DNA from: Thermoanaerobaculia bacterium | Lineage (GTDB): Bacteria > Acidobacteriota > Thermoanaerobaculia > UBA5066 > Gp7-AA6 | Reading direction: 5' to 3' | DNA: 32,161 bases | NCBI GenBank assembly: GCA_050745345.1 | Contig: JBOGJK010000257.1 | Coordinates: forward strand, 1 to 32,161 | In this document: in pieces, positions 3,128 through 24,619 of the stretch | Layout of the letters: every line of letters starts with the position of its first letter | How positions within the stretch are numbered: the stretch's first letter is position 1 | The notes under the pieces: generated by a model | Told to the model about the DNA's origin: nothing | The model's input: only the letters and a program-made list of their open reading frames with translations | The model's database searches: none | Translations under genes and position numbers: made by a program

Positions 3128-4441
3128 ATGAATCGGAGCTCGCATGAAGCCCGCTGGTTCTGGGTCACGCTGCTGCTCTCGAGCATCAGCATCGTGGCCG
3201 TTGTCTTCGCCGCGTGGGAGCTGGCGGAGGGCCACTTCTTCCGCGACGTCGATTACGTGACGCTCCACTACCTGTACATCAGCCGCGGCGTGGCGTCCTC
3301 GCTGCTGCTCGCCGCGTGGGCGGCGTGGTACGTGCTGCGCCAGCGTCGCCGGAGCGAGGAGGAGCTGCGCCGATCTCGGGAGCACTATCGGCACCTCCTG
3401 GAAGCCTCCCCTGGTGCCGTGGCGCTCTACGATGTCGAGCTCCGGGTCACGGAATGGAACGCCGCCGCCGAAAGGCTCTACGGGTTCACGAAGGCGGAAG
3501 TCCTCGGCCACCGGCTTCCGACGGTTCTTGCGGACAGGGAAGAGGAGCTGCAACAGTTCTTGCGGGACGCACAGGAGGGACGGCCAGTCATCGAGGTCGA
3601 GACACGTCGTCGTGACAGCCGGGGCGAAAGTCTCGAAGTGCAGCTCACTCTGCTGCCATTTCGCGAGGTGCCGGGTCTCAATCTCTTTCTCGAGGTGACG
3701 ACGGACATCCGCGAGCGCGTCCGGCTGCGGCAGCGGCTGCTGGAGATCGAGAAGCTGACGAGCATGGGCAAGATGGCGGCGGGAACCGCGCACCACCTCA
3801 ACACGCCTCTGGCCGCTATGCTCCTGCGTGTGCAGATGATGCGGGAGCGCAGCCATCACGAACTCTGCCAGCCTGACCTCGAACGGTTGGAGAGCGACAT
3901 CCTCTACTGCCAGCAGTTCGTCCGGCGGCTGCTCGAGTTCGGGCGCCGGCCCGCCGCCCGGAAGGAGCCACAACCGATCGCCGACTGCCTCGCATCGGTT
4001 GTCGGATTTCTGGCGCCGGCGCTCGATGCCAAGAGCATCCGTCTCTCCCTCGACGTCGACGCGATCGATGACGACCAAGTGCTGGCCGACCGCAACCTGC
4101 TCGAGGCTCTGTTCCTCATTCTTCTCAGCAACGCGCTCGACGCCGTCTTCGACGGCGGCGAGATTGCCGTTCGATGTGGCCGGACGGACGAGGGTCGGAT
4201 CGAGGTTCGAATCGTCGACCAGGGCTTAGGCATCGCTCCCTCGGAGCTTCCGCATGTCTTCGAGCCGTTCTACACGACCAAGGGGCCGGGCAAAGGCACC
4301 GGGCTCGGCTTGGCCATCGCACGTAACATCGTCCTCGAGCACGGCGGCTCGATCCGCATCGAGAGCGAGCCGGAGCGCGGGACCGTCGCTCGCGTCGAGC
4401 TGCCGGTCTGGGGCCCCGAGGCCGGGGGAGCCAGGCCGTGA
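3128..4441 (+). CDS. Membrane sensor histidine kinase (2 TM, cytoplasmic PAS, HisKA, HATPase_c)
   Basis: Two N-terminal hydrophobic segments separated by a ~20-aa loop. PAS-like LLEASPGAVALYDVELRVTEWNAAAERLYGFTKAEVLG. H-box MGKMAAGTAHHLNTPLAAM. N and G boxes LLSNALDA, DQGLGI and GTGLGLAIARNIVLEHGG. Confidence 0.85.
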   Translation: MNRSSHEARWFWVTLLLSSISIVAVVFAAWELAEGHFFRDVDYVTLHYLYISRGVASSLLLAAWAAWYVLRQRRRSEEELRRSREHYRHLLEASPGAVALYDVELRVTEWNAAAERLYGFTKAEVLGHRLPTVLADREEELQQFLRDAQEGRPVIEVETRRRDSRGESLEVQLTLLPFREVPGLNLFLEVTTDIRERVRLRQRLLEIEKLTSMGKMAAGTAHHLNTPLAAMLLRVQMMRERSHHELCQPDLERLESDILYCQQFVRRLLEFGRRPAARKEPQPIADCLASVVGFLAPALDAKSIRLSLDVDAIDDDQVLADRNLLEALFLILLSNALDAVFDGGEIAVRCGRTDEGRIEVRIVDQGLGIAPSELPHVFEPFYTTKGPGKGTGLGLAIARNIVLEHGGSIRIESEPERGTVARVELPVWGPEAGGARP

Positions 4442-5817
4442 GCTCATCCTTTGCGCCGCACCCCTGCGGGATCCTCGTGGTCGACGACGACGCGCGGCTT
4501 GCCGCGACCCTTCAGGAGCTGTTGGTGGGGGAGGGCTACTCGGTCGAGGTGGCTCATTCGGCAGCAGAGGCGCTGGCGATCCATGAGCGCAACCCCGGCA
4601 TCGCCGTGGCGCTCGTCGACCTGATCATGCCGGTCACCGACGGCCTGACGCTTCTGGATGAGCTGCACCGGCGCGATCCGGACCTGGCGGTCGTCGTCAT
4701 GACGGGCTACGGCACGATCGAAACCGCCGTGGAGGCGATCAAGCGGGGCGCAGAGGACTATCTCACCAAGCCGATGGACTCGCACGCCCTGCGGAAAAAG
4801 ATGGCGCGCCTGCTGGAGGTCTTCGAACTGCGGGAGCGCGTGCGGCAGCTCGAAGCCAATCTCGATCGTGCCCCGTCCTTCGAGACGATCCTCTCCGTGT
4901 CAACCGCGATGCTTCGCGCTATCGAGCACGCGAAAACCGTCGCCGCCACCGACGCCTCAGTGCTTCTCATCGGCGAGACAGGCACCGGCAAGGAGATGAT
5001 GGCTCGGGCGATCCACGCGGCCAGCCCGCGGGCAGGCAGCGCCTTCCTACCGGTCAACTGCGGCGCGATTCCGCGCGAGCTGGTGGAGAGCGAGCTGTTC
5101 GGCGTCCGCCGCGGCGCCTTTACCGGCGCCTACGCCGATGCTCCAGGCATCTTCGTCACGGCGGGCGGAGGCACGGTCTTTCTCGACGAGATCGGCGAGA
5201 TGCCGAAGGAGGCGCAGGTCAAGCTGCTGCGGGTGCTCCAGGAGGGGGAGCTGCGGCCCGTCGGCAGCGCCAAGCTCGTGCAGGTCGATGTGCGGATCGT
5301 CGCGTCGTCCAACCGTCCGCTGGCGGCGCTGCGAGACGAGCACTTGCGGCCGGACCTCTATTTCCGAATCGCCACCGTGGTGATCGAGCTGCCGCCTCTG
5401 CGAGTGCGGCCGGAGGACGTGCTCGTGCTGGCGCACACGTTCATCGGCCGGATCTCGCGCCGCACGGGCCGCGAGATCACGCTGGCCCGCTCCGCGGCGG
5501 ACCTGCTCGTCCACTCCTCGTTTCCGGGCAACGTGCGCGAGCTCGAGAACGTCCTGGAGAGCGCGGTCGCGCTCTCGCGCGACGACCCGCACGTCATCAC
5601 CGAGAAGGACCTGGGCCCCCTCCTGCGCAAGTCCGAAGGCGCCCCGCTGCCGGGCCGCTTCAGCGAGCAGCCGCTCTCTCTCGAGACCCTGGAGCGTGCG
5701 GCGATCGAGCAGGCCCTGCGCCTTTGCCGGGGTAACCGCACGCGAGCGTCCTCTCTGCTCGGCATCTCCCGCGACACGCTCCACCGAAAGCTACGCCAGT
5801 ACCATCAGGAGGGCTGA
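4438..5817 (+). CDS. Sigma-54-dependent response regulator (NtrC family: REC + AAA+ + Fis-type HTH)
   Basis: GTG at 4438 overlaps the kinase stop (GTGA). REC domain ILVVDDD...VALVDLIMP. Walker A GETGTGKE. Sigma-54 contact loop GAFTGA. ESELFG, and C-terminal HTH RTRASSLLGISRDTLHRKLRQY. Confidence 0.9.
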   Translation: MSSSFAPHPCGILVVDDDARLAATLQELLVGEGYSVEVAHSAAEALAIHERNPGIAVALVDLIMPVTDGLTLLDELHRRDPDLAVVVMTGYGTIETAVEAIKRGAEDYLTKPMDSHALRKKMARLLEVFELRERVRQLEANLDRAPSFETILSVSTAMLRAIEHAKTVAATDASVLLIGETGTGKEMMARAIHAASPRAGSAFLPVNCGAIPRELVESELFGVRRGAFTGAYADAPGIFVTAGGGTVFLDEIGEMPKEAQVKLLRVLQEGELRPVGSAKLVQVDVRIVASSNRPLAALRDEHLRPDLYFRIATVVIELPPLRVRPEDVLVLAHTFIGRISRRTGREITLARSAADLLVHSSFPGNVRELENVLESAVALSRDDPHVITEKDLGPLLRKSEGAPLPGRFSEQPLSLETLERAAIEQALRLCRGNRTRASSLLGISRDTLHRKLRQYHQEG

Positions 5818-5842
5818 GAGCCCTCCGGGCCCCCCGGGGCTC
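5818..5842 (+). terminator. Weak GC-rich hairpin after the response regulator gene
   Basis: GAGCCCT...GGGGCTC forms 6 bp plus one G-U with an 11-nt loop immediately after the TGA. The only T-run (TTTT, 5854-5857) is about 12 nt away, so this is not a canonical intrinsic terminator. Confidence 0.25.
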
Positions 5843-6001
5843 CTGCTGTCAGGTTTTCGGACGCTGGCGGTTTTTCTGACGCGACGTCTTCTTCGCCGCG
5901 CGCGCGGCCGTTCCCCGCCGCGGTCGCCGGCCGGCCCGGGACTGGTTGCCGCGAAAGGTTCTCCCGTTACGGGTGGGCGTTGGGTGCTCCAGGAAGTCGG
6001 G

Positions 6002-6017
6002 TGGCAGATGGCGTGCA
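6002..6017 (+). promoter_or_regulatory. Candidate sigma-54 (-24/-12) promoter
   Basis: TGGCAGATGGCGTGCA has GG and GC at the exact consensus spacing of TGGCACG-N4-TTGC. It lies 185 nt downstream of the NtrC-type activator gene and 26 nt upstream of the GTG at 6043, which carries an AGGAAA Shine-Dalgarno at 6030-6035. An inverted repeat GTCAG(5848-5852)-N23-CTGAC(5876-5880) about 130-150 nt upstream could be an activator site. Confidence 0.45.
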
Positions 6018-6042
6018 ACGGAGCGAGCCAGGAAACGGTTCC

Positions 6043-7287
6043 GTGTCATCGCCACAAGCAGGACCCGCCGACAGCGGCAGCGGACCTTCGGGGGCCCGGC
6101 TGTGGATCCGGGTCCTGCTGGCGCTCGCGGCGGTCGGTCTTCTGCTCGCCGTTCTGCTCTGGGAGAGAAAGCAGTCGAAGAGCCGCTGGTCGTCGCTTGT
6201 CGCCGGGAGCCCTCGGGCCGGGGCGGAACTCTTTCAAACGAAGGGCTGCGCTTCCTGCCACAGCCCCGGAGCGGGACGGGCGAGCCAGGCCCCGGATCTG
6301 GCCGCCGATGGGTCGGGGCGTTCGGGGCCGGACCGACTGGTCACCGTGATGTGGAACCACGCTCCCCAGATGTGGGAGCGGATGCAAATGCAGAAGATCG
6401 TTCAGCCCGCTTTCAGCGAGCGGGAGATGGCCGACCTCCTCTCCTACGTCTACACGCTCCGATACGTCGGAGAGCCCGGCAACGCCGAACGGGGTCAGAG
6501 CCTCTTCGTCGAGAAGGGCTGCGTCGCCTGCCACCGCGTGCAGAGCGGAGGGGATCGCGCCCCCAAGGACGTCATCGTCCTCGACGCGATGATGACCGCT
6601 GTCGGCTGGGCGACGGCGATGTGGAACCACCCGGGCGCCAGCGACGCCGAACGGCCTCGCTTCGAAGGCCGCGAGATGAACGACATCTTGAGCTACGTCC
6701 GGGGCGGAGGGGCAGCCCCCAGGCTGGATGAGGACCTGCTGCGGGCGGATTTTGGACGCGGCTGGCAGGTCTTTCGGGACAAGTCGTGCGCCGCCTGCCA
6801 CTCGGTCAAGGACGAGGCCGGGCGCGTCGGTCCGGAGCTCGGGCCGGGCCGCCAGCTCCCGGCCACCATGCTCGAGCTTGCCGGCTCCATGTGGAACCAC
6901 TCCCCGGCGATGTTGCGGCAGATGGAGCATCTGCGCGTCGCGCGCGCCATCTTCCGCAAGCAGGAGATGGCCGACCTGCTCGCGTTTCTCTACAGCTTCC
7001 GCTACGCCGAGCCGGGAGGTTCCCCGAAGGTCGGCGAGGTGCTCTTCGCGGGTCGCAGTTGCAGCCACTGCCACGGGCGACGCGCACAGGGCACTCCTCA
7101 GGCACCGGGGCTTCGCGGGCGAGGCAGGAACTACACGGCGGTGACGATGGCGACGGCCCTCTGGCGGCACGGCCCCGCGATGTACCGGCGTGCCCAGGAT
7201 CTCGGCATGTCGTGGCCGCTTTTGGCCGAGAACGACGTCGGGGATCTGATCACTTTCCTGAACACGTCGCCGGAGGACGAGCGATGA
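6043..7287 (+). CDS. Membrane-anchored cytochrome c built from four tandem ~90-aa monoheme domains
   Basis: Four CxxCH motifs (CASCH, CVACH, CAACH, CSHCH), each followed about 35-40 residues later by MWNH or LWRH. The W codons sit at 6352, 6622, 6892 and 7162, exactly 270 nt apart. One N-terminal TM helix (LWIRVLLALAAVGLLLAVLLW). Start chosen at GTG 6043 because of the SD; the ORF is open from TTG 5980. Confidence 0.8.
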   Translation: MSSPQAGPADSGSGPSGARLWIRVLLALAAVGLLLAVLLWERKQSKSRWSSLVAGSPRAGAELFQTKGCASCHSPGAGRASQAPDLAADGSGRSGPDRLVTVMWNHAPQMWERMQMQKIVQPAFSEREMADLLSYVYTLRYVGEPGNAERGQSLFVEKGCVACHRVQSGGDRAPKDVIVLDAMMTAVGWATAMWNHPGASDAERPRFEGREMNDILSYVRGGGAAPRLDEDLLRADFGRGWQVFRDKSCAACHSVKDEAGRVGPELGPGRQLPATMLELAGSMWNHSPAMLRQMEHLRVARAIFRKQEMADLLAFLYSFRYAEPGGSPKVGEVLFAGRSCSHCHGRRAQGTPQAPGLRGRGRNYTAVTMATALWRHGPAMYRRAQDLGMSWPLLAENDVGDLITFLNTSPEDER

Positions 7288-7811
7288 CCGAGAAGCGCGC
7301 TCGATGGGTGGCGCCCGCTCTCGGCGTTCTGGTTCCCTTCATGATCACCGCGGCGGTGGTCGCCTTGCTTCCCTACCACGGGCCGACGAAGCCGGTCCGC
7401 CAGCCGATCGCCTTCAACCACCGCAAACACGTCGAGGAGGCCTCGCTGTCCTGTTCGACCTGCCACCAGTTCTACGAGACGGAGGCCTTCTCCGGGCTTC
7501 CGGCTGCCGACGTCTGCGCGGTCTGCCACCTCGAGCCCCAGGGCAAGAGCGCCGAGGAGCGCGAGCTTGTCCGGCTCTTGAAGGCGGGCACGCCGCTCGA
7601 CTGGAAGCCGCTCTTCCGCCAGCCGTCGCACGTGTACTCCTCGCATCGGCGCCACGTCGTGGTGGCCAAGCTCGACTGCCCGGTCTGCCACGGAGAGATC
7701 GGAAAGAGCAGGGAGCCGCCGTCGCGGGTGCGGCGCCTGGTCATGGAGGACTGCCTCGACTGCCACCGCCGCCGTGGCGTGTCGGCGGAATGCACGACGT
7801 GTCATCGATGA
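7284..7811 (+). CDS. Membrane-anchored pentaheme cytochrome c (c3/c7 class III type; ActA/QrcA-like position)
   Basis: ATG at 7284 overlaps the upstream stop (ATGA). N-terminal TM helix VAPALGVLVPFMITAAVVALL. Five CxxCH motifs (CSTCH, CAVCH, CPVCH, CLDCH, CTTCH) in 175 aa, plus IAFNHRKH. Confidence 0.8.
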   Translation: MTEKRARWVAPALGVLVPFMITAAVVALLPYHGPTKPVRQPIAFNHRKHVEEASLSCSTCHQFYETEAFSGLPAADVCAVCHLEPQGKSAEERELVRLLKAGTPLDWKPLFRQPSHVYSSHRRHVVVAKLDCPVCHGEIGKSREPPSRVRRLVMEDCLDCHRRRGVSAECTTCHR

Positions 7812-7830
7812 GCGACTTGTGGAGCGTGTG

Positions 7831-10257
7831 ATGGAGCGAAGCGCAAGCGTCAGCCGCAGGCGCTTTCTGGGTTTTGCGGTGGGTGCTGCGGCGGGGGCGG
7901 CGGCCGGCGTGCCGGCGGGACGGACGCTGGGCGATCTTCTCCAGGCCGCCGATCTGCCCGTTTACCCGCTGCGGGGGCCGGAGAGCTTCGTCCTCTCCGT
8001 CTGTAGCCTCTGCCCGGGTGGCTGCGGATTGCGCGTCCGGCGGATCGGCGAGCGCGTGGTTAAGGTCGACGGAAACCCGCTCCATCCGGTCAATGGGGGC
8101 CGTCTCTGCCCGCGCGGGCAGGCGGCTCTCCAGAGCCTCTATCATCCTGACCGCCTCGCCGGACCGCTCCACCGGGTCGGGCCGCGTGGAACGCTCGAAT
8201 CCTTCGAGCGAGTCTCGTGGGATCGCGCCCTCGGAGAGATCGCCGCGCGCCTGAAGACGCTCCGAGCGAAAGGACGGCCCGAGTCGCTCGTCCTGGTACG
8301 CGGCGGCGCCCGGCGCGTGGGAAGCCGCCTCGCGCAGCGTTTTCTCGCGGCGTTCGGCTCGCCCAACGACGTGACGCTCGACCGCGGCGAGGTCTCCGCC
8401 TCGCTCGCCCTGCAGCTTGGCCAGGGTCTGCTGGCCGCTCCCGCCTACGACCTCTCTTCCGCCGACTACGTTCTCTCGCTGGGCGGCGCGCTCTTGGAGG
8501 CCTGGAGCTCGCCGGTCCACACCTCGCGCGCGTACGGCCACTTCCGGCAGGGCCGCACGGGCCGGCGCGGCAAGCTCGTGCAGGTCGAGCCGCGGCTGTC
8601 GATCACCGCCGCCTCGGCCGACCAGTGGATTGCCGTCCGGCCGGGCACCGAAGGGGTCTTCGGCCTGGGAGTGGCGGCAGTGATCGTCGCCGAAAGCCTC
8701 TACAACAAGGAGTTTGTCGCCGAACATACAGTGGGGCTCGAAGAGGTGGCGGGAGCCAGGGGAGAGCCCCGGCGCGGCCTGCGCGAGCTGCTCGAGCGCG
8801 ACTACGGCCTGGAGCGCGTGGCCGAGGAGACCGGCGTGTCCGCGAACGTGATTCTGCGCGTGGCGCGCGAGCTCGCCGCCGCCCGCCGCGGCGTGGCCGT
8901 GGGCCCGCGCCGCGGCTTTCTCCTGCCCGGCTCTCTCCACGGCCATCTCGTCGCGCAAACGCTCAACGCCCTGCTCGGCAGCATCGACTCCCCGGGCGGC
9001 GTGCTCGTGGCGGAGGAGGCGCCGCTCGCCCAATGGCCCCGGCTGCCTGAGGACGCGGTGGCGCTTCACGGGCGCGGCCGTCCGCGCCTCGACGGCGCGG
9101 GCAGCGGGGACTTGGCCTCCCTTCCCTCCGATCCCGAGCGGCTGGCCGAGGCAATTCTTTCCGGCTCGCCGTATCCCGTCGAGGCGGTCATCGTCCTGGA
9201 TGCGGATCCGGTTTTCGCTTCCTTCGCGCCCGACCGCTATGCGGCGGCGCTCGAGCGGGTCCCGCTGGTCGTCTCCTTCGCCACGATTCCCGACGACACC
9301 TCGCTCCACGCCGACTGGATCCTTCCGGAGGCGCATTTCCTCGAGCAGTGGGAGCTCCAGACGACACCGCCGGGCGTGCCCTATCCCGTCGTCAGCCTCT
9401 CGCGGCCGACGCTCGCCAGGCCGCTCCACGACGTTCGGCCGGTCTCCGAGATCTTCCTCGAGCTGGCCCGACGCACCGGGCCGGAGATCGCCGCAGCGTT
9501 TCCCTGGAAGGACGTCCGGTCGCTGCTGAAGGCGGAGATGCAGGGCCTCTACGAGCAGAAACGCGGCGCCATCATGGGCACGGCCTTCGACGAAGCCTGG
9601 GTCCGCATGATGGAGGGGGCGGGCTGGTGGGTGCCGGGCTACCGCTCCGCCGAAGAGCTGTGGACGAAGTCGCTGGAGACCGGCGGCTGGTGGGATCCCT
9701 TCTACGACCACGGCGACTGGAAACGCGTCTTGAAGACCCGCTCCGGGCGCTTCGAGTTTCGGGCGGACATTCTCGAGCGGCGGCCGCGGGCCGCCGTGGC
9801 CGGCGGCCTGGAGCCGAAGCCCGATGCGCTCGCCCTCGTGCTCTTCGAGCCGCTCGCCCTGGCCGGCGGAACGGGCGCCGAGCTACCGTTTCTGCAGGGG
9901 ATTCTCGATCCCGGTGAAGAGGAGCGGTGGGAGACGTGGGCGGACCTCCATGCGGAGACGGCCGCCGCGCTCGGGATCGCCGACCGGGACCGTGTGACGG
10001 TCTCCTCGCCCCACGGTGCGATCTCGGTGTGCGCGCGGGTGGGGCTGCGCGTCGTGCCCGGCGTCGTCGCGATCCCGGTCGGCCAGGGAAAGCGCGCCGG
10101 CGGGCGCTGGGCCGCCGGCGTCGGGGCGAACCCGCTGCGGCTGGTCTCGGGCGAGAGAGAGCTCTTCTCCGGGCTGCCCGATCCGGGCTCGACGAAGGTG
10201 CAGGTGACGAAGGCGGACGGAGGCGAACGCGGCCGCCCGGCCGACAGGAGGGCCTAG
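7831..10257 (+). CDS. TAT-exported molybdopterin-oxidoreductase-family large subunit (PsrA/ActB1/QrcB-like)
   Basis: Twin-arginine signal SRRRFLGFAVGAAAGAAAG. FS0-type motif CSLCPGGCG...(27 aa)...C. Also FGSPN, and a C-terminal Molydop-binding-like WADLHAETAAALGIADRDRVTVSSPHGAISVCARV...PGVVAIPVGQG. Confidence 0.8.
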   Translation: MERSASVSRRRFLGFAVGAAAGAAAGVPAGRTLGDLLQAADLPVYPLRGPESFVLSVCSLCPGGCGLRVRRIGERVVKVDGNPLHPVNGGRLCPRGQAALQSLYHPDRLAGPLHRVGPRGTLESFERVSWDRALGEIAARLKTLRAKGRPESLVLVRGGARRVGSRLAQRFLAAFGSPNDVTLDRGEVSASLALQLGQGLLAAPAYDLSSADYVLSLGGALLEAWSSPVHTSRAYGHFRQGRTGRRGKLVQVEPRLSITAASADQWIAVRPGTEGVFGLGVAAVIVAESLYNKEFVAEHTVGLEEVAGARGEPRRGLRELLERDYGLERVAEETGVSANVILRVARELAAARRGVAVGPRRGFLLPGSLHGHLVAQTLNALLGSIDSPGGVLVAEEAPLAQWPRLPEDAVALHGRGRPRLDGAGSGDLASLPSDPERLAEAILSGSPYPVEAVIVLDADPVFASFAPDRYAAALERVPLVVSFATIPDDTSLHADWILPEAHFLEQWELQTTPPGVPYPVVSLSRPTLARPLHDVRPVSEIFLELARRTGPEIAAAFPWKDVRSLLKAEMQGLYEQKRGAIMGTAFDEAWVRMMEGAGWWVPGYRSAEELWTKSLETGGWWDPFYDHGDWKRVLKTRSGRFEFRADILERRPRAAVAGGLEPKPDALALVLFEPLALAGGTGAELPFLQGILDPGEEERWETWADLHAETAAALGIADRDRVTVSSPHGAISVCARVGLRVVPGVVAIPVGQGKRAGGRWAAGVGANPLRLVSGERELFSGLPDPGSTKVQVTKADGGERGRPADRRA

Positions 10258-10259
10258 GC

Positions 10260-10961
10260 ATGGCGCGCTGGGCGATGGTGATCGATCTAGACCGCTGCAC
10301 GGCTTGCCAGGCCTGTGTTGTGGCGTGCCAGGCCGAGAACAATGTCCCGCCCGCCGGGCCGGAGCGCGCCGAGAGGGGTCGCGCGATCTCCTGGCTGCGA
10401 CTGGTTCCTTTCCAGGGAGGGGAGCACGGGACGGGGCCGGAGCTGCGGCTGGTGCCACTGCCGTGCATGCACTGCGAGCGCCCCCCGTGTACCCGCGTCT
10501 GCCCCGTGAAGGCGACGCAGATCGACCGGGAGGGCCTCGTCTCCCAGGTCTACCCCCGCTGCATCGGGTGCCGCTACTGCACGACCGCCTGTCCCTACAC
10601 GGTCCGCTATTTCAATTGGGATCGCCCGCAGTGGCCGCGCCCCATGGAGGACAGCTTGAGCCCGGACGTCTCGGTGCGGCCCAAGGGCGTCGTCGAGAAG
10701 TGCACGTTCTGCCACCACCGCCTGCAGCGCGCGCGCGACCGGGCCCGGGCGGAAGGCCGGCCGCTGCGGGAAGGCGACTACGTTCCGGCCTGCGTCGAGA
10801 CGTGTCCCGCGGAGGCGATGGTCTTCGGAGATCTCGACGATCCGCGCAGCGCCGTCTCCCGGCTGTCGCAGGGGCCGCGCGCCTTCCGGCTGCTCGAGGA
10901 GCTGGGGACCCGGCCGAAGGTCGTCTACCTGTCGAAAGGAGAATGGGGTGGAGAAGTTTGA
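10260..10961 (+). CDS. Four-cluster [4Fe-4S] ferredoxin-type subunit (PsrB/NrfC/ActB2/QrcC-like)
   Basis: ATG at 10260 follows AGGAGG. Four Cys groups: CTACQACVVAC, CMHCERPPCTRVCP, CIGCRYCTTACP and CTFCH...CVETCP. Confidence 0.85.
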   Translation: MARWAMVIDLDRCTACQACVVACQAENNVPPAGPERAERGRAISWLRLVPFQGGEHGTGPELRLVPLPCMHCERPPCTRVCPVKATQIDREGLVSQVYPRCIGCRYCTTACPYTVRYFNWDRPQWPRPMEDSLSPDVSVRPKGVVEKCTFCHHRLQRARDRARAEGRPLREGDYVPACVETCPAEAMVFGDLDDPRSAVSRLSQGPRAFRLLEELGTRPKVVYLSKGEWGGEV

Positions 10962-12288
10962 GCTTGGCGAGGATGCCCGGCTGCTGCGCCCGATCGAGCG
11001 GACGGGCCGCGCCTTCCGGATCAGCACCGCCATCCTGCTCTCGATCGCGGCCTGGGGCGTCTTCGCCTATCTCTCGCAGCTGCGCCGCGGCCTCTCGGTC
11101 ACCGGCCTGAACGTTCCCGTCTACTGGGGCCTTTACATCACCAACTTCGTCTTCTTCATCGGCATCAGCCACGCCGGCACGCTGATCTCGGCGATCCTGC
11201 GGCTAGCGCACGCCGAATGGCGCCGCTCGATCACGCGCTCGGCCGAAGTGATAACGGTCCTGGTCCTCTGGTTCGGCATGGGATGCGTGATTCTGGACCT
11301 CGGGCGGCCGGACCGGGTCTTCAACATCCTGCGCCACGGCAACTTCACCTCGCCGCTCTTGTGGGACGTCGCCTCGATCGCGACCTATCTGACGGCCAGC
11401 ACGATCTACCTGTATCTGCCGCTCATCCCCGACATCGCCATTCTGCGCGACAACTTTCCGGGCCGCAAATGGCTCTACCGCACGCTGGCCCTCGGCTGGA
11501 CCGGCACGCCGCGGCAGCAGCGCCTGCTCAACCGGGCGATTGCCGCGATGGCGGTCATCGTGATCCCGATCGCCGTCAGCGTTCACACCGTCGTCTCCTG
11601 GGTTTTCGCGATGACGGTCCAGCCGATGTGGCACTCGACGATCTTCGGACCCTATTTCGTCGTCGGCGCCATCTTCTCGGGGATCGCCGCGATTCTGATC
11701 GCCATGGCGATCATCCGGCGCGCCTACCACCTGGAGGACTACCTCAAGCCCGTGCACTTCAACAACCTGGGGCTCCTGCTCCTCGTCATGACCCTGCTCT
11801 GGTTCTACTTCACGTTCGCCGAGTTCCTCACGACTTACTACGGGGGCGAGCCGTCCCACATGGTGATCTTCCTCTCCAAGACGGAGGGCCGCTTCTCGCC
11901 TCTCTTCTGGACGATGGTCGTGACGTGTTTCGTGGTTCCCTTCGCGATGCTCGCGAACAACCGGACGCGCGGGACGGTCTGGGGGACCGTGACGGCCGCG
12001 GTCTCGGTCGAGATCGGCATGTGGCTCGAACGCTTCCTGATCGTGGTTCCGAGCCTCTCGAATCCGAGACTTCCCCTGACGGCGGCCACCTACACGCCCT
12101 CCTGGGTGGAATGGTCGCTGATGGCGGCGTTCGTCGCAACCTTCATCTTCCTCTACTCCGTCTTCTCCAAGCTCTTCCCGATCGTCTCGATCTGGGAGAT
12201 CCACGAGGGGCGCGAGAAGTCTTTGGAGGAAGTCAGCACGCGGGTTCAGAGCTACCTTCCGGCGGCCGTGGGGGCGGGACATGAGTAA
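10948..12288 (+). CDS. NrfD/PsrC-type polytopic quinone-interacting membrane subunit (ActC/QrcD-like)
   Basis: GTG at 10948 follows AAAGGAGA and overlaps the FeS gene. The 446-aa protein is strongly hydrophobic, with GLNVPVYWGLYITNFVFFIGISHAGTLISAILRL, typical of NrfD-family subunits. Confidence 0.8.
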   Translation: MEKFELGEDARLLRPIERTGRAFRISTAILLSIAAWGVFAYLSQLRRGLSVTGLNVPVYWGLYITNFVFFIGISHAGTLISAILRLAHAEWRRSITRSAEVITVLVLWFGMGCVILDLGRPDRVFNILRHGNFTSPLLWDVASIATYLTASTIYLYLPLIPDIAILRDNFPGRKWLYRTLALGWTGTPRQQRLLNRAIAAMAVIVIPIAVSVHTVVSWVFAMTVQPMWHSTIFGPYFVVGAIFSGIAAILIAMAIIRRAYHLEDYLKPVHFNNLGLLLLVMTLLWFYFTFAEFLTTYYGGEPSHMVIFLSKTEGRFSPLFWTMVVTCFVVPFAMLANNRTRGTVWGTVTAAVSVEIGMWLERFLIVVPSLSNPRLPLTAATYTPSWVEWSLMAAFVATFIFLYSVFSKLFPIVSIWEIHEGREKSLEEVSTRVQSYLPAAVGAGHE

Positions 12289-13534
12289 CCGGCCCCGCTC
12301 GTCGGCCGCGGCCGGTGCGCTCGTGCTCGCCGCCCTGCTCGTGGCGGCGCTGGCCCGCGCCGAGTTCGGCGACCCGGTCCGCGGCCAATCGCTCTTCGTG
12401 GAGAAGGGGTGCGTCCAGTGCCACGCGGTGCGCGGCACGGGCGGGCGCATCGGGCCGGACCTGGGCCGCACGGCGGTCAAAGGCTCCTTCTTCGAGCTGG
12501 CCGCGGGCATGTGGAACCACTCGCAGGTGATGGGGCGCAAGATGGAGGAGAACCGAATCATCCGGCCGTCCTTCAAGGAGAGTGAGCTCGGCGACCTGAT
12601 CGCCTTTCTCTACTTCCTCAACTATTTCGACGAGCCGGGTGACCCGAAGGTCGGCAAGGTGCTCTTCGCGCAGAAGCACTGCATCCAGTGCCACCGGATC
12701 GGCCGGGAAGGGGGGACCGCGGGCCCCGCGCTGGACCGGCTCGCCCGCGGCACGGCGCCGCTGCGCATCGCCCAGGACCTGTGGAACCACGGCCCGGTGA
12801 TGGTGCCCGCCATCCGGCGGCTGGGCATGGACGTGCCCAAGTTCGAAGGCAGCGAGATCGTGGATCTCTTCGGATATCTGCGCAGCCAGGGGCAGCGCGA
12901 GACGGCGCGGGAGTTCCGGTCGGCGGGCGATCCGAATCGCGGCAGGGCGCTCTTCGCGAGCAAGGGTTGCGCCCGGTGCCACGCCATCTTCGGCCGCGGC
13001 TCGGCTATCGGCCCGGACCTCGGCAAGGCGGAGCTGCGGGGCAGCGTCACGCAACTGGCGGGTAGGATGTGGAACCACTGGCCGGCGATGGCCGAGGCGA
13101 TGGCGACGCTGGGCATGGCGCCGCCGACGTTTCACGAGGAGGAGATGGCGGATCTTTTCGCCTATCTCTTCCTCTCCCGCTACGGCGGGCGGCCGGGAGA
13201 CGTAGCGCGCGGCGAGGCGATCTACCGGACGAAGGGCTGCGCCTCCTGCCACGGGCACCGCGGCGAGGGCAACGTCGGACCCGCCCTGCGCGCGGTCGCC
13301 GCCGGCCAGCCCAAGGAGGGCATCGTCCAGCAGATGTGGAATCACGCGCCGGCCATGGGCGAAAAGATGAGCGCGTACGGAGTGCCCTGGCCGCGCCTCG
13401 AGGCGGACGATCTGGCCAACCTGATCGCCTTTCTCGCCCGCGGCTGGCAGCCCCCGGACGCCACGAGCGATTCGCCTCGGCCCGCTCGAGGGCGTTCACA
13501 CGCGCCGTCGCGACAAAGGAGAGACAGCCCATGA
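12281..13534 (+). CDS. Secreted cytochrome c built from four tandem monoheme domains (paralog of 6043..7287)
   Basis: Cleavable-looking signal (LVAALARA/EF). Four CxxCH motifs (CVQCH, CIQCH, CARCH, CASCH), each followed by a WNH motif (MWNH, LWNH, MWNH, MWNH). GQSLFVEKGCV is shared verbatim with domain 2 of the upstream paralog. Confidence 0.8.
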   Translation: MSNRPRSSAAAGALVLAALLVAALARAEFGDPVRGQSLFVEKGCVQCHAVRGTGGRIGPDLGRTAVKGSFFELAAGMWNHSQVMGRKMEENRIIRPSFKESELGDLIAFLYFLNYFDEPGDPKVGKVLFAQKHCIQCHRIGREGGTAGPALDRLARGTAPLRIAQDLWNHGPVMVPAIRRLGMDVPKFEGSEIVDLFGYLRSQGQRETAREFRSAGDPNRGRALFASKGCARCHAIFGRGSAIGPDLGKAELRGSVTQLAGRMWNHWPAMAEAMATLGMAPPTFHEEEMADLFAYLFLSRYGGRPGDVARGEAIYRTKGCASCHGHRGEGNVGPALRAVAAGQPKEGIVQQMWNHAPAMGEKMSAYGVPWPRLEADDLANLIAFLARGWQPPDATSDSPRPARGRSHAPSRQRRDSP

Positions 13535-14106
13535 AAACCTTTCGGTGTTCGTTCTTCCTCGCGGGCGGACTCGCGCTTCTCCTTTCCGCGTGGGCGGGAG
13601 CCAGGACTCCCTCCTACGCGGGAGCAAAGAAGTGCAAGATGTGCCACCTCAAGCAGTTCCAGACGTGGGAGCAGACGAAGATGGCGAAGTCCTTCGAGCT
13701 GCTCCGTACCGGCGTCGCGGCCGAGGCCAAGAAGAAGGCCAACCTCGATCCTCAGAAGGACTACACGCACGACGAGAAGTGCCTCGCCTGTCACACGACT
13801 GGCTACGGCAAGCCCGGCGGATTCGTCAGCGTCGAGAAAACGCCGGAGCTGGTGGGGGTGCAGTGCGAGTCGTGCCACGGGCCGGGCAGCGAGTACCTGA
13901 AGGAAGGAGCAATGACGCTGAAGAACAGGGAGTACAAACGCGCCGAAATGGTCAACCTCGGCCTGGTCTTGATCGACGCGGAGACATGCACCTCACAATG
14001 CCACAACAACAGGAGCCCCTTCGTCGGGAAGGACTACGTCTTCAACTACGAGCAGCGCCGCACGCAGGGAACGCACGAGCACGTTCCTCTGAAGTTCGAG
14101 CATTAG
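13531..14106 (+). CDS. Secreted small multiheme cytochrome c (c554-like), 3 CxxCH + 1 CxxxCH
   Basis: ATG at 13531 follows AAAGGAGAG and overlaps the upstream stop (ATGA). Signal peptide present. Motifs CKMCH, CLACH, CESCH and CTSQCH. Confidence 0.75.
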   Translation: MKTFRCSFFLAGGLALLLSAWAGARTPSYAGAKKCKMCHLKQFQTWEQTKMAKSFELLRTGVAAEAKKKANLDPQKDYTHDEKCLACHTTGYGKPGGFVSVEKTPELVGVQCESCHGPGSEYLKEGAMTLKNREYKRAEMVNLGLVLIDAETCTSQCHNNRSPFVGKDYVFNYEQRRTQGTHEHVPLKFEH

Positions 14107-14145
14107 TCTGTCTAGTTCGGGCTATCTGTTGACAGATTGGGGCCC
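14104..14145 (+). repeat. Copy B of the conserved ~42-nt intergenic element
   Basis: TAGTCTGTCTAGTTCGGGCTATCTGTTGACAGATTGGGGCCC aligns to 2816-2857. CTGTC/GACAG is retained. In the TAGTC/GGCTA stem the A-to-G difference turns a T-A pair into a T-G wobble. The element starts on the stop codon of the preceding cytochrome gene. Confidence 0.7.
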
Positions 14146-14233
14146 GAGGCGCTGTGGCAGCGAAGAGCGGGACACGCTCCGCGAGTGGGTCATTGTCGGC
14201 GGAGCCTGCGCGAACGGGGGGCCGCCCGATAGC

Positions 14234-15126
14234 GTGCCTCGAGGGGCTCCTCGAAAAGACCAGCCGCACCTTCGCGCTCTCCCTTCCGGTTCGGCCCGAG
14301 CCGACCCGGCACGAGTCATGATCGCGTACCCGCTGTTCCGCATTGCGGACACCTTCGAGGACGCCGCGCACTGGGAGCGTGGAAGCCGCATCGCGGCGCT
14401 CTCCGAGTTCCGGGCGCTTCTGGCGGCGTACTCGCGGCCGCAGGCCGAGCGGCTGTCCGGCAAGTGGAGCGCCGCCGGCCCATCCGCGCATGCGGGCTAC
14501 CGGGAGCTGATCGCCGAGGTCCCCTTCGTCCTGAACGCCTTCTTCGCCTTGCGCCCCGACGCGGTCGAGCCCGTGAGGGCCCACGTGATTCGTTCGGCGG
14601 AAGGCATGGCCCGGTACGTCGCGCGCACCCGCGGGAAAGCCCCCGTGCTCTCGAACCTGCCGGACCTGAAGGCCTACTGCTATGTCGTGGCCGGGATCGT
14701 CGGGGAGATGTTGACGGAGCTCTTCTTGCTCGGGCGGCCCGGGCTGCAGGCAATCGCCCCCTTCCTGAGGGAGCGGGCTTCGACCTTCGGTGAGGCGCTG
14801 CAGCTCACCAACATCCTCAAGGACTCGGCCACGGACGCCTCCGAGGGGACCTTCGGGCCGGTGTGCCTCGAGCCGAGATCCTCGCCCTGGCGCGGCGGGA
14901 CCTCGAGACCGCGGCGGCCTATATCGCCAGGCTCCAGTCCGCCGCCGCGCCGCAGGGCCTGGTCGAGTTCACGGCCCTGCCGGTACTTCTGGCACGGGCG
15001 TCCCTCGACCTCATCGAGAGGCGGGGACCGGGCTCGAAGATCAGCCGCCCGCAGGTCTTTCTGCTGACGCAGCAGTTGAAGCGCGCGCTCGACCGGGGAG
15101 AGCCGGCGGTTCCGGCCGGGGCGTAA
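14234..15126 (+). pseudogene. Frameshifted second copy of the squalene synthase gene
   Basis: Long stretches are near-identical at nucleotide level to 1644-2555. The N-terminal LLEKTSRTFALS coding sequence is in a different frame from the MIAYPLFRIADTFED body: one base is missing at about 14316 (cacgagtcatg versus cgtgaggtgatg). A net 7-nt loss near 14847-14865 removes the GRRYLP motif and shifts the C-terminal third into the frame of ORF 14863..15126. Confidence 0.7.
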
Positions 15127-15233: not shown

Positions 15234-17330
15234 ATGACGGCAAACCGCGGCGTCCTTCTGGCGGCGGGATTTCTCGCTCTGGTTCCGCTCTCGACCGGGG
15301 GTCCCCGAGCGCCACGCGCGCTCGACCCGCGCGGCCCGTCGGCACAGGCCTATTCGCCCAGCGCAAAAGAGTTCTACATGACCGAAGACGAGATCGGCTA
15401 CATCCGGCCGGGCTTCCACATCACCGTCAACTCGATCACGATCCCGGAGGATCGCCGGCCGGTCGTGGACCTCTCCTTCACCGACGACTTCCAGCAGCCG
15501 CTCGACCGGCTGGGGCAGGTGACGCCGGGACCGCTTTCGATCAGCCAGGTGCTGGCCTGGTGGGACGCGGGGACCCGGTACTACACGGCCTACACGACAC
15601 GGGTCCAGAAGAGCCCGATCACCAACGTCTCCGCCACACAGGCGGCCGCGGACTCGGGAGGAACGTGGACGGACCTCGAGATCGGGCACTCGATCTACAG
15701 GTTCCGGACCGTGCTGCCCGCCGGATTCGACCAGACCAAGACGCACACGCTGGCGATCTACGCGACCCGCAACATGGCCGGGATCCAGGAGAAGAACTAC
15801 TACGACAACGTGGAGTACGACTTTCGTCCCGACGGCGCAGCGGTCACCGAGGTCTGGGACAAGACCTCGGAGGGCATCTGCAACCGGTGCCACGACCTGC
15901 TTGCCCTGCACGGCGGGTCCCGGCAGGAGGTCAAGCTCTGCGTGACCTGTCACAACCCGCAGACCACCGACCCGGACACGGGCAACACCGTGGACATGAA
16001 GGTGATGGTTCACAAGATCCACCGGGGCGAGAACCTGCCGAGTGTCGAGGCCGGCAGGCCTTACCAGATCATCGGGTTCAACCAGGGCGTCAACGACTAC
16101 TCCACCGTCGTCTTCCCGCAGGACATCCGTAACTGCGTCCGGTGCCACACGGAACCGGCCACCCAGAACGCCAACTACTACACGTTCCCCGCCCGCGCGC
16201 CCTGCGGCGCCTGCCACGACGACATCAACTGGACCACGGGGGAGAACCACGCCGGCGGGCCGCAGGCGGACGACTCGGCCTGCTCCTCCTGTCATCGGCC
16301 GCAGGGTGATCGGGAATGGGACGCTTCGATCCTGGGGGCGCACACGGTTCCCTACAAGTCCACGCAGCTCAAGGGTCTGAACGCGGAGATCCTGTCCGTG
16401 TCCAATGCCGTGCCCGGCCAGAAGCCGACGGTCACCTTCAAGATCACGGAGAACGACGCCACGCCCGTTCCACCCGCCTCCTTCACCACGCCCACGGGAG
16501 GGAGCAACCTCAACCTGCTCCTGGGCGGCCCCACCACGGACTACGCCATCAACCCGCGGCGGGAGCGCGCCGACGGGGCGAGCTTCAACGGCACGATCGC
16601 GACCTACACCTTCAACAACGCAATCCCCGCGAACGCCACGGGCACTTGGGCCTTCTCGATCGAGGCGCGCCGCACGGTCACGCTCGACCCGGCGCCCCAC
16701 GACAGCCCGACGATCACGGAAGGGGCCTTCAACCCTGTTTACTACGCCTCCGTCTCGGGCGGCACGCCCGTCGCACGGCGCGCCGTGGTGGATCTGGCCA
16801 ACTGCAACACGTGCCACGATCGGCTCGTGCTCCACGGCGGACAGCGCCTGAACACCGAAGAATGCGTGATGTGCCACAACCCGAACGCGAGTGACGTGGC
16901 GCGGCGTCCCGCCGACAAGGCGCCCGTCGAGTCGATCGACTTCAAGCGGATGATCCACCGGATCCATACGGGCGAGGAGCTGACGCAGGACTACACGGTC
17001 TATGGGTTCTTTACTCCACCGAATCCGCCCAATCCGATCAACTTCAACGAAGTGCGCTTCCCCGGCGACCGGCGCGACTGCGAGACGTGCCATGTCCCGG
17101 GCGCCCAGCAGGTGCCTGAAGATGAGGCGCTCGCCACGCGCCTGCCGACAGTCACGCTGCGGGACTGGTACACGCCGACACAGCCGGTCGCCGCCGCCTG
17201 CCTCGGCTGTCACGATGAGCGCCACGTGGCGGCCCACGCGTACGTCATGACAGCGCCCTTCGGTGAGGCCTGCGCGGCGTGTCACGGGCCGGAGGCGGAG
17301 TTCTCCGTCGACGAGGTTCACGCTCGGTAG
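15234..17330 (+). CDS. Decaheme cytochrome c, OmcA/MtrC-family-like (two heme-free domains alternating with two pentaheme domains)
   Basis: Ten CxxCH motifs in two groups of five. Residues 1-215 are heme-free, then five motifs, then about 170 heme-free residues, then five motifs. Both groups open with the same signature (CNRCHDLLALHGG..CVTCHNP and CNTCHDRLVLHGG..CVMCHNP). A signal peptide is present but has no lipobox Cys. Confidence 0.75.
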   Translation: MTANRGVLLAAGFLALVPLSTGGPRAPRALDPRGPSAQAYSPSAKEFYMTEDEIGYIRPGFHITVNSITIPEDRRPVVDLSFTDDFQQPLDRLGQVTPGPLSISQVLAWWDAGTRYYTAYTTRVQKSPITNVSATQAAADSGGTWTDLEIGHSIYRFRTVLPAGFDQTKTHTLAIYATRNMAGIQEKNYYDNVEYDFRPDGAAVTEVWDKTSEGICNRCHDLLALHGGSRQEVKLCVTCHNPQTTDPDTGNTVDMKVMVHKIHRGENLPSVEAGRPYQIIGFNQGVNDYSTVVFPQDIRNCVRCHTEPATQNANYYTFPARAPCGACHDDINWTTGENHAGGPQADDSACSSCHRPQGDREWDASILGAHTVPYKSTQLKGLNAEILSVSNAVPGQKPTVTFKITENDATPVPPASFTTPTGGSNLNLLLGGPTTDYAINPRRERADGASFNGTIATYTFNNAIPANATGTWAFSIEARRTVTLDPAPHDSPTITEGAFNPVYYASVSGGTPVARRAVVDLANCNTCHDRLVLHGGQRLNTEECVMCHNPNASDVARRPADKAPVESIDFKRMIHRIHTGEELTQDYTVYGFFTPPNPPNPINFNEVRFPGDRRDCETCHVPGAQQVPEDEALATRLPTVTLRDWYTPTQPVAAACLGCHDERHVAAHAYVMTAPFGEACAACHGPEAEFSVDEVHAR

Positions 17331-20301: not shown

Positions 20302-20589
20302 ATGAGAATACGGAGTTCACGGCTTGCTTTGACGGCGGCGCTTCTCTTCTGGGGAGGGTGGGTCGCGTTCTCAGGATCGTCCTCGGCCTCGCTCGACACC
20401 CAGAAGCAGGCGAAGGCGGCCGGCGTCGACGCGAAGAACTGCCTGTACTGCCACGTCGACAAGCTGCCCAAGAAGGAAGCGCATGAGTTAAACGACGCCG
20501 GCAAGTGGCTCGTGGCCGAGAAGGAGAAGCGCAAGGCCGACAAAGTCGACGGCGCCTGGTTGAAGGACTATCCCGGCGGCAAAAAGTAG
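20302..20589 (+). CDS. Small (95 aa) mono-CxxCH protein, Lys/Glu-rich; tandem paralog 1
   Basis: AAGGAGGA SD, N-terminal hydrophobic segment and a single NCLYCH motif. The C-terminal WLVAEKEKRKADKVDGAWLKDYPGGKK is conserved with the next gene. Confidence 0.7.
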   Translation: MRIRSSRLALTAALLFWGGWVAFSGSSSASLDTQKQAKAAGVDAKNCLYCHVDKLPKKEAHELNDAGKWLVAEKEKRKADKVDGAWLKDYPGGKK

Positions 20590-20619: not shown

Positions 20620-20907
20620 ATGAGGAGAGCGGCTTCGAGGCTGGGTCTCGCGGCGCTCCTGCTGAGCTGGTCCGGTTGGCTTCTTCTGACCGGAACCTCC
20701 TCGGGCACCCTTCCCATGCAGAAGAAGGCCAGGGAGCTGGGCTTCGCGGCGGAAAACTGCCTCTACTGCCACGGAGAGAAGTTGCCGAAGAAGGAGGCCG
20801 TCTCATACAACGACCGCGGCAAGTGGCTGATCGCGGAAAAGGAGAAGCGGAAGGCTGCGGAAGTCGACATGGCCTGGCTCAAGGACTATCCGGGCGAGAA
20901 GAAATAG
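20620..20907 (+). CDS. Small (95 aa) mono-CxxCH protein; tandem paralog 2
   Basis: GGGAGG SD and the same length as the preceding gene. 60 of 95 residues are identical by manual alignment, including NCLYCH, KLPKKEA, GKWL.AEKEKRKA and AWLKDYPG. Confidence 0.7.
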   Translation: MRRAASRLGLAALLLSWSGWLLLTGTSSGTLPMQKKARELGFAAENCLYCHGEKLPKKEAVSYNDRGKWLIAEKEKRKAAEVDMAWLKDYPGEKK

Positions 20908-24618: not shown

Positions 24619-24619
24619 G

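Follow-up and report, generated by a model that had tools for sequence, protein, structure and literature searches.

Alternative complex III (ACIII) in its canonical form donates electrons to caa3/aa3 oxidases (PMC5928083), and Qrc is the type I cytochrome c3:menaquinone oxidoreductase of sulfate reducers (PMC6303296). Related clusters have been placed in other chains. The actAB1B2CDEF genes of Fe(II) oxidisers were proposed to link the periplasmic cytochromes of extracellular iron redox chemistry with the quinone pool (PMC4643136), and act-like clusters of MBNT15 and Melioribacter were suggested to feed periplasmic multiheme cytochromes and an outer-membrane Fe(III) reductase (PMC9386147). 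Here we analyse a seven-gene operon related to ACIII and Qrc, carried by a 32,161-bp contig of a Thermoanaerobaculia (Acidobacteriota) metagenome-assembled genome (MAG); this contig, at its full length, is called the window below. An earlier reading of the DNA letters (the sequence-only reading) had described the operon as a sigma-54-linked, Qrc/ACIII-like module.

Extracellular electron transfer (EET) needs an inner-membrane enzyme joining the quinone pool to periplasmic cytochromes, a step which to our knowledge is largely unknown outside Shewanella and Geobacter. The cultured relative Thermoanaerobaculum aquaticum reduces Fe/Mn oxides, and the reductase was proposed to be encoded by syntenic cytochrome/porin clusters of Thermoanaerobaculia (10.1101/2020.10.01.322446; PMC9671151). 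In a survey, acidobacterial mtrCAB genes were found without an adjacent inner-membrane quinone oxidoreductase (PMC8805035). An ACIII-like module beside mtrCAB in Thermoanaerobaculia is a concrete candidate for this enzyme. We propose, with a probability of about 0.6, that the operon codes for a membrane-bound quinol:cytochrome c oxidoreductase that faces the periplasm, belongs to the ACIII/Qrc superfamily and here would feed the neighbouring Mtr conduit.

The operon and its ACIII-like core

At about 69% G+C, the window holds many spurious long open reading frames (ORFs), and genes were therefore set by family matches (Pfam and NCBIfam). The five protein calls that were checked against the deposited PGAP products (MGH9367216-218, -220 and -221) agree with them letter for letter.

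The operon comprises seven genes on the forward strand (positions 6043-14106). It opens with Cyt4A, a membrane-anchored four-domain class I cytochrome c of 414 aa (6043-7287) in which Pfam Cytochrom_C matches four stretches. Then come an ActA/QrcA-like pentaheme cytochrome c of 175 aa with an N-terminal transmembrane (TM) anchor (7284-7811), an ActB1/QrcB-like molybdopterin-fold subunit of 808 aa with a twin-arginine translocation (TAT) signal (7831-10257; Pfam Molybdop_Fe4S4, Molybdopterin and Molydop_binding), an ActB2/QrcC-like four-cluster iron-sulfur (FeS) subunit of 233 aa (10260-10961) and an ActC-like, quinone-interacting membrane subunit of the NrfD family (Pfam NrfD; 446 aa, about 10 TM helices; 10948-12288). 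The last two genes encode Cyt4B, a secreted four-domain class I cytochrome c of 417 aa with CxxCH and WNHxxxM motifs (12281-13534), and a c554-like tetraheme cytochrome of 191 aa (13531-14106; Pfam Cytochrome_C554, E 8e-26). ATGA overlaps are found at 7284 and 13531 and overlaps of 14 and 8 nt at 10948 and 12281, respectively; the remaining junctions are gaps of 2 nt, between the large subunit and FeS genes, and 19 nt. Because every junction is either an overlap or a gap of 2 or 19 nt, the seven genes can fairly be taken as a single transcription unit. The gene content and order claimed from the letters were thus borne out, and every domain named at that stage was found again with Pfam and NCBIfam. 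A start of the first cytochrome at TTG 5980 was dropped in favour of GTG 6043. A convincing terminator was looked for after the c554 gene and was not found.

Judged by their sequences, three subunits (FeS, NrfD and pentaheme) are clearly akin to those of ACIII. When compared with solved structures, the NrfD subunit matched ActC of 6f0k, 6lod, 6btm and 8k9e at 209-224 bits (E about 1e-61 to 1e-65) and gave no match to PsrC. The FeS subunit matched the C-terminal domain of ActB at 179-235 bits, best in 6f0k_B (residues 797-1024, 235 bits), against 114-124 bits for ArrB/PsrB. As for the pentaheme, which carries five CxxCH motifs and a TM helix at residues 9-27, it matched ActA of four solved complexes at up to 73 bits, with E values from 2e-19 (8k9e_A) to 7e-12 (the others being 6lod_A, 6btm_A and 6f0k_A). 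The kinship with ACIII and Qrc announced by the sequence-only reading therefore stands. In NCBIfam, the best hits of the pentaheme, the molybdopterin-fold (Mo-like) subunit and the FeS subunit are QrcA, QrcB and QrcC, all below cut-off (99 bits for a cut-off of 180 with QrcA, 314 for 400 with QrcC). An identity of the NrfD subunit as DsrP, to which NCBIfam gives 127 bits versus 57 for QrcD, was dropped, ActC being far closer.

Residues around the quinone site are also kept. The NrfD subunit shows nine clear hydrophobic segments and a weaker one, and its W60, I64, F67, D117, L137, D140 and R362 are invariant. The equivalents of W82, I86, F89, L166, D169 and R395 of Rhodothermus marinus ActC are invariant in 38-39 of 39 members; the family has an invariant Asp in place of ActC His139, and Val in place of Asp253. 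In the R. marinus enzyme, W82, I86, F89, L166 and D169 line the proposed quinol pocket and Arg395 is the 'gate' (PMC5928083, PMC8076601).

The FeS subunit has 16 Cys in four groups, and the group III motif CIGCRYC..ACPY is invariant in 42/42 members. Solved ActB chains read C-x-G-T-(R/K)-Y-C at this place, Thr replacing the second Cys. According to the rule known from DmsB and NarH, a Cys at the second position of group III gives a [4Fe-4S] cluster. Since this Cys is retained here, the sequence predicts a [4Fe-4S] cluster beside the quinone site, where FeS1 of solved ActB is a [3Fe-4S] cluster next to the quinol site.

The molybdopterin-fold subunit

RRxF and the [4Fe-4S] motif CX2CX3CX27C, called FS0 hereafter, are invariant in 26/26 homologs of the large subunit, and FS0 is kept in the Zixibacteria and Chlorobiota large subunits, which are only 32-35% identical. 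At the two candidate Mo-ligand positions, the homolog alignment holds no conserved Cys, Ser, Asp or selenocysteine: the column aligned to the PsrA ligand Cys173 varies between D, E, G, A, H and Y, and that aligned to the ArrA ligand Cys between E, D, G and N. The stretch aligned to the RGRY active-site motif of ArrA is variable as well. Moreover, the large subunit diverges faster than its partners, with 35% identity to its Zixibacteria homolog compared to 62% for the FeS subunit and 66% for the NrfD subunit. Because the Mo-ligand columns and the RGRY stretch vary, and because divergence is faster than in the partner subunits, this protein is more likely a non-catalytic export carrier or scaffold which would keep one [4Fe-4S] cluster and no conserved Mo site.

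The large subunit nevertheless resembles true molybdoenzymes more than it does ActB. It matches ArrA/PsrA at 185-193 bits and ActB at 32-56 bits. A structure model of moderate confidence, built from the 26-sequence alignment (predicted local distance difference test, pLDDT, 71.5), gave Foldseek TM-scores of 0.70-0.75 to ArrA/PsrA, the nearest solved structures, with ActB outside the top 50; this fold search does not discriminate between cofactor-bearing and cofactor-less Mo folds. Such features would suit a working Mo/W-bisPGD (molybdenum or tungsten bis-pyranopterin guanine dinucleotide) enzyme, the operon then encoding an enzyme that reduces or oxidises a soluble substrate in the periplasm, for instance an oxyanion of sulfur, arsenic or selenium. 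Electrons would reach its active site through FS0, and the cytochromes would give them an additional way in or out besides the quinone pool. The three Pfam domains of Mo enzymes are indeed all present, FS0 persists from close homologs to distant members and the FeS subunit keeps all of its 16 Cys, like PsrB/ArrB and unlike solved ActB. We nonetheless consider an enzyme of this type improbable. In addition to the missing ligand residue, the variable RGRY-aligned stretch and the faster evolution of the large subunit relative to FeS and NrfD, NCBIfam scores lie far under every reductase cut-off (PhsA 229 bits for 694, ArrA 214 for 1600, TtrA 65 for 1750; QrcB, which is missed too, 277 for 440), the membrane anchor and FeS subunit are of the ActC/ActB2 type and not of the Psr/Arr type, and the ActA-like pentaheme is an invariant partner.

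In DmsAB-type export, an FeS partner devoid of signal travels with the subunit carrying the TAT signal. As the FeS subunit of the operon has no signal peptide, it is, by analogy, probably exported by hitch-hiking on the Mo-like subunit.

The tetraheme cytochromes

Cyt4A and Cyt4B each carry four CxxCH motifs. They are colinear paralogs with 35% identity, Cyt4A being anchored by a TM helix at residues 20-38. In the Cyt4B-type cytochrome, G, CxxCH, P, WNH and M are invariant in each domain. Domain 2 of Cyt4A (window positions 6520-6600) reads MWNHPGASDAE and has thus lost the Met of the otherwise invariant WNHxxxM motif, so one Cyt4A heme may differ in axial ligation from the hemes of Cyt4B.

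The four-domain cytochrome belongs to a sizeable family (370 clusters at 50% identity, E <= 1e-30) which public annotation knows only under the generic name 'c-type cytochrome'. No similarity to ActE was found, either with the whole protein or with a 48-sequence domain profile; the matches were to generic class I cytochromes only (c555, CcoP/cy, QcrC).

The operon had been described as ending with a c554-like tetraheme cytochrome. The family and the position are correct, while the heme motifs turn out to be three CxxCH plus one CX3CH, the last motif of the protein (CTSQCH). Its score against the NCBIfam model for Nitrosomonas c554 is 115 bits, which misses the cut-off of 400. Among its homologs, the fourth heme site is CxxCH in 12 relatives, CX3CH (CTSQCH, CAALCH or CTSLCH) in six loci plus the window, and absent in one.

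A conserved five-gene unit

To place the operon among its relatives, 47 related loci, all from MAGs, were taken from a scan of one genome per species; in metagenomes, the large subunit has hundreds of homologs. Within the Acidobacteriota, the loci are labelled Thermoanaerobaculia, Vicinamibacteria, Holophagaceae/Geothrix and Solibacteraceae; the other labels are Anaeromyxobacter, Planctomycetota, Zixibacteria, Chlorobiota and Bacteroidetes. As seen by tblastn across the related loci, an invariant core is found in fixed order: pentaheme, Mo-like subunit, FeS subunit, NrfD subunit and four-domain cytochrome. The five-gene order is unchanged in loci whose large subunit has as little as 32-35% identity. 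Cyt4B comes after NrfD in every locus long enough to show it, and its start overlaps the end of the NrfD gene in four independent cases (the window, L003, L051 and L053).

Cyt4A is confined to one Thermoanaerobaculia-type subgroup and c554 occurs in many, but not all, loci. The upstream Cyt4A, c554, the kinase/activator pair and the MtrC/MtrA neighbours described below are accessories. Consequently, the bracketing of the core by two four-domain cytochromes, put forward by the sequence-only reading, is true for the window but is a Thermoanaerobaculia elaboration, only the downstream copy being universal.

Surroundings vary. Downstream of the module and c554 in L051 (16333-20480; 'uncultured bacterium'), the partner set is different: a GltD-like Fer4_20/Pyr_redox_2 protein, then a Rieske protein, cytochrome b and a large multiheme cytochrome. 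The Zixibacteria locus is flanked by Rrf2, Fur, a TonB receptor and EamA transporters, which give no functional hint.

A sigma-54 promoter and its candidate activator

The sigma-54 -24/-12 element TGGCAGATGGCGTGCA (6002-6017, forward strand) is the sole match to TGGCA-N7-TGCA on both strands of the window, for 0.10 expected from shuffles. It stands on the strand expected for the operon, within the 225 nt that separate the activator and Cyt4A genes, 41 nt before the GTG start, and an AGGAAA ribosome-binding site comes just after it. A GG-N10-GC element precedes the orthologous first gene in the 12 related loci examined (ten by scan, two by eye). In the ten Cyt4A-headed loci found by scan it has at most one mismatch and lies mostly 35-42 nt ahead of the start; the remaining two Cyt4A-headed loci carry TGGCCCCCGCCTTGCT and TGGTAGGCGGCTTGCG. 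The seven spacer bases vary from locus to locus and the core -24/-12 bases and their position are kept, which is the pattern that selection on the -24 and -12 boxes would be expected to leave. The element proposed from the window alone is therefore both unique there and conserved in its spacing.

Vicinamibacteria and Planctomycetota loci, too, have similar sigma-54 elements ahead of the module, with other small genes in the leading position. In the Planctomycetota loci L052 (8367-9392) and L041 (5870-6952), genes for a small membrane protein and a cNMP-binding-domain protein stand between the promoter and the pentaheme gene; these two proteins may be an extra regulatory layer.

Two regulatory genes lie upstream on the same strand and share a GTGA overlap. 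The first (3128-4441) encodes a membrane-anchored PAS histidine kinase of 437 aa with one clear N-terminal TM segment (Pfam PAS, HisKA and HATPase_c), and the second (4438-5817) an NtrC-type sigma-54 enhancer-binding response regulator of 459 aa (Pfam Response_reg, Sigma54_activat with E 1.6e-60, AAA_lid_14 and HTH_8) whose translation contains the GAFTGA motif. Between this gene and the promoter, the inverted repeat TGTCAG-N23-CTGACG (5847-5881) is the best-conserved upstream block when the window is compared with its three closest relatives (L004-L006). It lies about 120-155 nt ahead of the -24 box, within the region 5840-5890 that had been flagged for activator binding, and is a candidate binding site for the activator. 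A kinase/activator pair adjoins the module in 28/50 fetched loci, either upstream or downstream. The window itself holds no rpoN gene. These features support the earlier proposal that the adjacent PAS kinase and NtrC-type activator would turn the operon on via the sigma-54 promoter. The Geobacter cbcBA quinol oxidoreductase operon requires a sigma-54 activator (10.1101/2021.04.15.440034) and thereby offers a functional precedent for sigma-54 control of the module.

Elements of the same type were seen elsewhere: a well-formed one before an MtrC-like decaheme gene in L008 (3058-3073) and others before several multiheme cytochrome genes in L017 (16408, 18365 and 21030). Given these positions, sigma-54 control may reach more EET genes in these Acidobacteriota.

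The neighbouring Mtr conduit and the direction of electrons

Mtr genes start 1.1 kb downstream of the operon, on the same strand, and probably give it its physiological setting. An MtrC/OmcA-family decaheme, the likely terminal partner (15234-17330; TIGR03507, 489 bits for a cut-off of 209), is followed by a periplasmic decaheme of the MtrA/DmsE family (17380-18300; TIGR03508, 197.2 bits for a cut-off of 192.2), each with ten CxxCH. The gene in the MtrB position (18307-20259) encodes a secreted protein of 650 aa that is a putative porin in view of its synteny, signal peptide and beta-strand-like sequence. It shares 45% identity with the 648-aa product of the gene after MtrA in L003; neither Pfam nor NCBIfam recognised it, and BLASTP found no similarity with the Pfam MtrB_PioB protein of L001. 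MtrC-like decahemes adjoin the module in about 7/10 loci of the Cyt4A subgroup with usable flanks, and they are placed upstream, downstream or on the opposite strand. Because the association recurs in different gene arrangements, it does not look like chance, and the module may be the inner-membrane entry point of the neighbouring Mtr pathway.

The gene content, the homologies and the conservation of synteny, promoter element and Cys motifs are seen directly in the sequences. We infer from these comparisons that the subunits form a complex, that electrons follow a given path and direction through it, that it lacks a Mo cofactor and that it is linked to Mtr. The ActC-like NrfD subunit would bind menaquinol or menaquinone at the periplasmic face and oxidise menaquinol, and the FeS subunit would relay the electrons to the membrane-anchored pentaheme. 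From there they would pass to Cyt4B, a four-heme cytochrome in place of ActE, and, in the Thermoanaerobaculia genome, also to the added membrane-bound Cyt4A and c554. MtrA, the putative porin and MtrC would then most likely carry them to extracellular Fe(III)/Mn(IV).

The same complex might instead run in the Qrc direction, electrons from outside or periplasmic donors passing via MtrCAB, c554 and Cyt4 to the pentaheme and FeS subunits and on to menaquinone, in the service of Fe(II)/Mn(II) oxidation, electron uptake or reverse electron flow. The Cyt4 domains, class I with an invariant Met, would fit this direction, since His/Met-type class I cytochromes are usually high-potential. The neighbouring conduit, on the other hand, has an MtrC-type surface decaheme, which is typical of reducers and not of MtoAB-type oxidisers. 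Three subunits have Qrc, a cytochrome c:menaquinone oxidoreductase (PMC6303296), as their nearest NCBIfam family, and the only split ActB1 described with the same motif is that of neutrophilic Fe(II) oxidisers, for which a cytochrome-to-quinone role was proposed (PMC4643136); the cultured relative, however, is an anaerobic reducer of Fe/Mn oxides (10.1101/2020.10.01.322446). Overall, we find the Qrc direction unlikely.

Electrons from menaquinol may also have another destination. The module could be a general substitute for ACIII, serving soluble or membrane terminal reductases such as cytochrome c oxidases or N-oxide reductases, with the mtrCAB adjacency being incidental. The domain profile of Cyt4 resembles CcoP, cytochrome cy and actinobacterial QcrC, which serve oxidases, canonical ACIII itself donates to caa3/aa3 oxidases (PMC5928083), most loci have no neighbouring multiheme cytochromes and one lies beside Rieske/cytochrome b genes. 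Yet no oxidase genes were seen beside the module in loci with annotated flanks, and within the Cyt4A subgroup the MtrC association comes back in differing arrangements, so that we give this option a rather low likelihood.

A number of observations weigh against a quinol:cytochrome c oxidoreductase feeding Mtr. Further cytochromes (at least 5 hemes) are found nearby in only 11/28 loci with at least 6 kb of flank; the modules of L053 and L044 stand alone and that of L051 lies beside the Rieske/cytochrome b pair. Since many loci have no multiheme cytochromes nearby, the Mtr link is not a property of the module itself, which would be a general quinone-to-cytochrome c adaptor whose partner depends on lineage. 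In the window, a squalene/phytoene-synthase gene stands between the operon and mtrC, no -24/-12 element was found when the region before mtrC was searched, and a second candidate quinol oxidoreductase (20915-23106) is closer to the Mtr genes. The class I type of Cyt4, usually high-potential, suits an oxidase-directed or Fe(II)-oxidising chain equally well. Finally, invariant FS0, the 16-Cys FeS subunit and the ArrA/PsrA-like fold leave room for a Mo/W cofactor.

Other genes of the neighbourhood

The second candidate oxidoreductase consists of an 11-heme cytochrome with a C-terminal TM helix (20915-22270) and a membrane protein of the cytochrome b561/Ni_hydr_CYTB type (22144-23106). The b561-type gene is followed by a 484-aa multiheme cytochrome with a NapC/NirT-like region (23164-24618), and the layout from 20915 to 24618 recalls Geobacter CbcBA/CbcL. 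An 824-aa ORF at 22230-24704 was considered as a second porin and rejected as a spurious frame: it has an out-of-frame look, no family hit and no likeness to MtrB_PioB. Between the MtrB-position gene and this group lie tandem genes for proteins of about 95 aa (20302-20589 and 20620-20907), the first with a single CxxCH; L003 holds the same pair, and its members match the first gene with 55% and 61% identity.

The block from the kinase to c554 lies between two genes of the squalene/phytoene-synthase family (hopanoid hpnC/D-like; 1383-2555 and 14129-15126), and dxs (25730-27709) and ispH (27703-28695) are found further downstream. This arrangement suggests an insertion of the respiratory block among isoprenoid/hopanoid genes. 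The downstream synthase gene is apparently frameshifted near 14855, its C-terminal part continuing in another frame up to 15126; it could be a pseudogene or reflect an assembly error.

Implications

ActC-type subunits are thought to move protons, and the module could therefore affect the energy gained from metal respiration. The family keeps FS0 and the full Cys set, both lost in canonical ACIII, and may show how a molybdoenzyme is converted into a pure electron-transfer complex.

A wider proposition can be put forward only tentatively. The module would be a distinct, widespread and as yet unnamed lineage of the ACIII/Qrc superfamily, made of five subunits, with a Mo-fold subunit wired to the FeS chain through FS0, an all-[4Fe-4S] FeS subunit and a dedicated tetraheme class I cytochrome, and in Thermoanaerobaculia it would be the inner-membrane quinol dehydrogenase of MtrCAB-type EET, possibly an energy-conserving one. 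We are doubtful of this proposition as a whole. Were it true, the retained FS0 would be a second electron exit via the large subunit or part of a cryptic catalytic site, and either role would represent a state between true molybdoenzymes and cofactor-less ActB/QrcB.

Comparison with known systems

The sequence-only reading did not recognise the composition of the operon as that of a described complex. Likewise, we found in the literature no characterised complex of this composition, and public annotation gives only generic names. The Fe(III)-reduction idea for ACIII-like clusters, a four-heme 'ActE-like' protein and a split ActB1 with FS0 have already been published at the annotation level (PMC9386147, PMC4643136). 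The five-gene composition, its breadth across phyla, the FS0/all-Cys signature, the sigma-54 control and the recurrent position beside Thermoanaerobaculia mtrCAB were not found described.

ACIII of R. marinus, Flavobacterium johnsoniae and Chloroflexus/Roseiflexus shares with the module a TM-anchored pentaheme ActA, a Mo-fold domain with a TAT signal, a four-cluster FeS domain, a 10-helix ActC with the pocket residues and the Arg395 equivalent, and a class I cytochrome c as presumed exit. The differences are several. ActB is here split into two genes, 2 nt apart, and ActD, the monoheme lipoprotein ActE and the second NrfD-like subunit ActF are absent from the operon, as the sequence-only reading had also stated. 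A single NrfD-family gene is present, no spare ORF exists between 6043 and 14106 and the overlaps and short gaps (19 nt at the most) leave no place for ActD, ActE or ActF. At the exit position is a four-domain cytochrome without detectable similarity to ActE. FS0 is invariant here, whereas the solved B1 domains have no prosthetic group (PMC5928083). A Cys occupies the place of the Thr that solved ActB has at the [3Fe-4S] FeS1 site, the motif pointing to the cluster type. Unlike canonical ACIII, which donates to caa3/aa3 oxidases (PMC5928083), the module has no linkage to oxidase genes in the loci with annotated flanks.

With QrcABCD, the module has in common the order of multiheme c, Mo-like, FeS and NrfD subunits, the separate B and C subunits, electron transfer facing the periplasm and a large subunit that is non-catalytic in Qrc and probably so here (PMC6303296, PMC13059093). 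It departs from Qrc by missing the NCBIfam cut-offs (A 99/180, B 277/440, C 314/400 and D 57/570 bits), by five hemes in the first subunit compared to the hexaheme QrcA and by an extra, obligatory tetraheme cytochrome. QrcB is cofactor-less according to its published description, with which our conserved FS0 is compared by description rather than by sequence alignment (PMC13059093, PMC6303296). In addition, the module is found outside Desulfobacterota, in contrast to QrcD, which was reported only in Deltaproteobacteria (PMC8076601).

The actAB1B2CDEF clusters of Gallionellaceae and Zetaproteobacteria resemble the operon by their split ActB1/ActB2 and by an ActB1 with the same CX2CX3CX27C (PMC4643136). 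Compared by description, they differ in keeping actD, actE and actF and in having no four-domain cytochrome. The clusters of MBNT15 (SHF-111) and Melioribacter roseus are act-like and lie away from oxidase genes, as does the module (PMC9386147). At the level of annotation, the MBNT15 cluster comprises ActABCD and a four-heme 'ActE-like' protein, so that ActD is present there (PMC9386147).

The inner-membrane EET quinol oxidoreductases CymA, ImcH, CbcL, CbcBA and NetBCD, finally, share with the module the proposed role of linking menaquinone to periplasmic cytochromes and a porin-cytochrome conduit, and control by sigma-54 and an enhancer-binding protein is common to the module and cbcBA (10.1101/2021.04.15.440034). 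These enzymes are NapC/NirT-type or b/c-type cytochromes, unrelated to the combination of NrfD, FeS and Mo-fold subunits that would fill this role in Thermoanaerobaculia.

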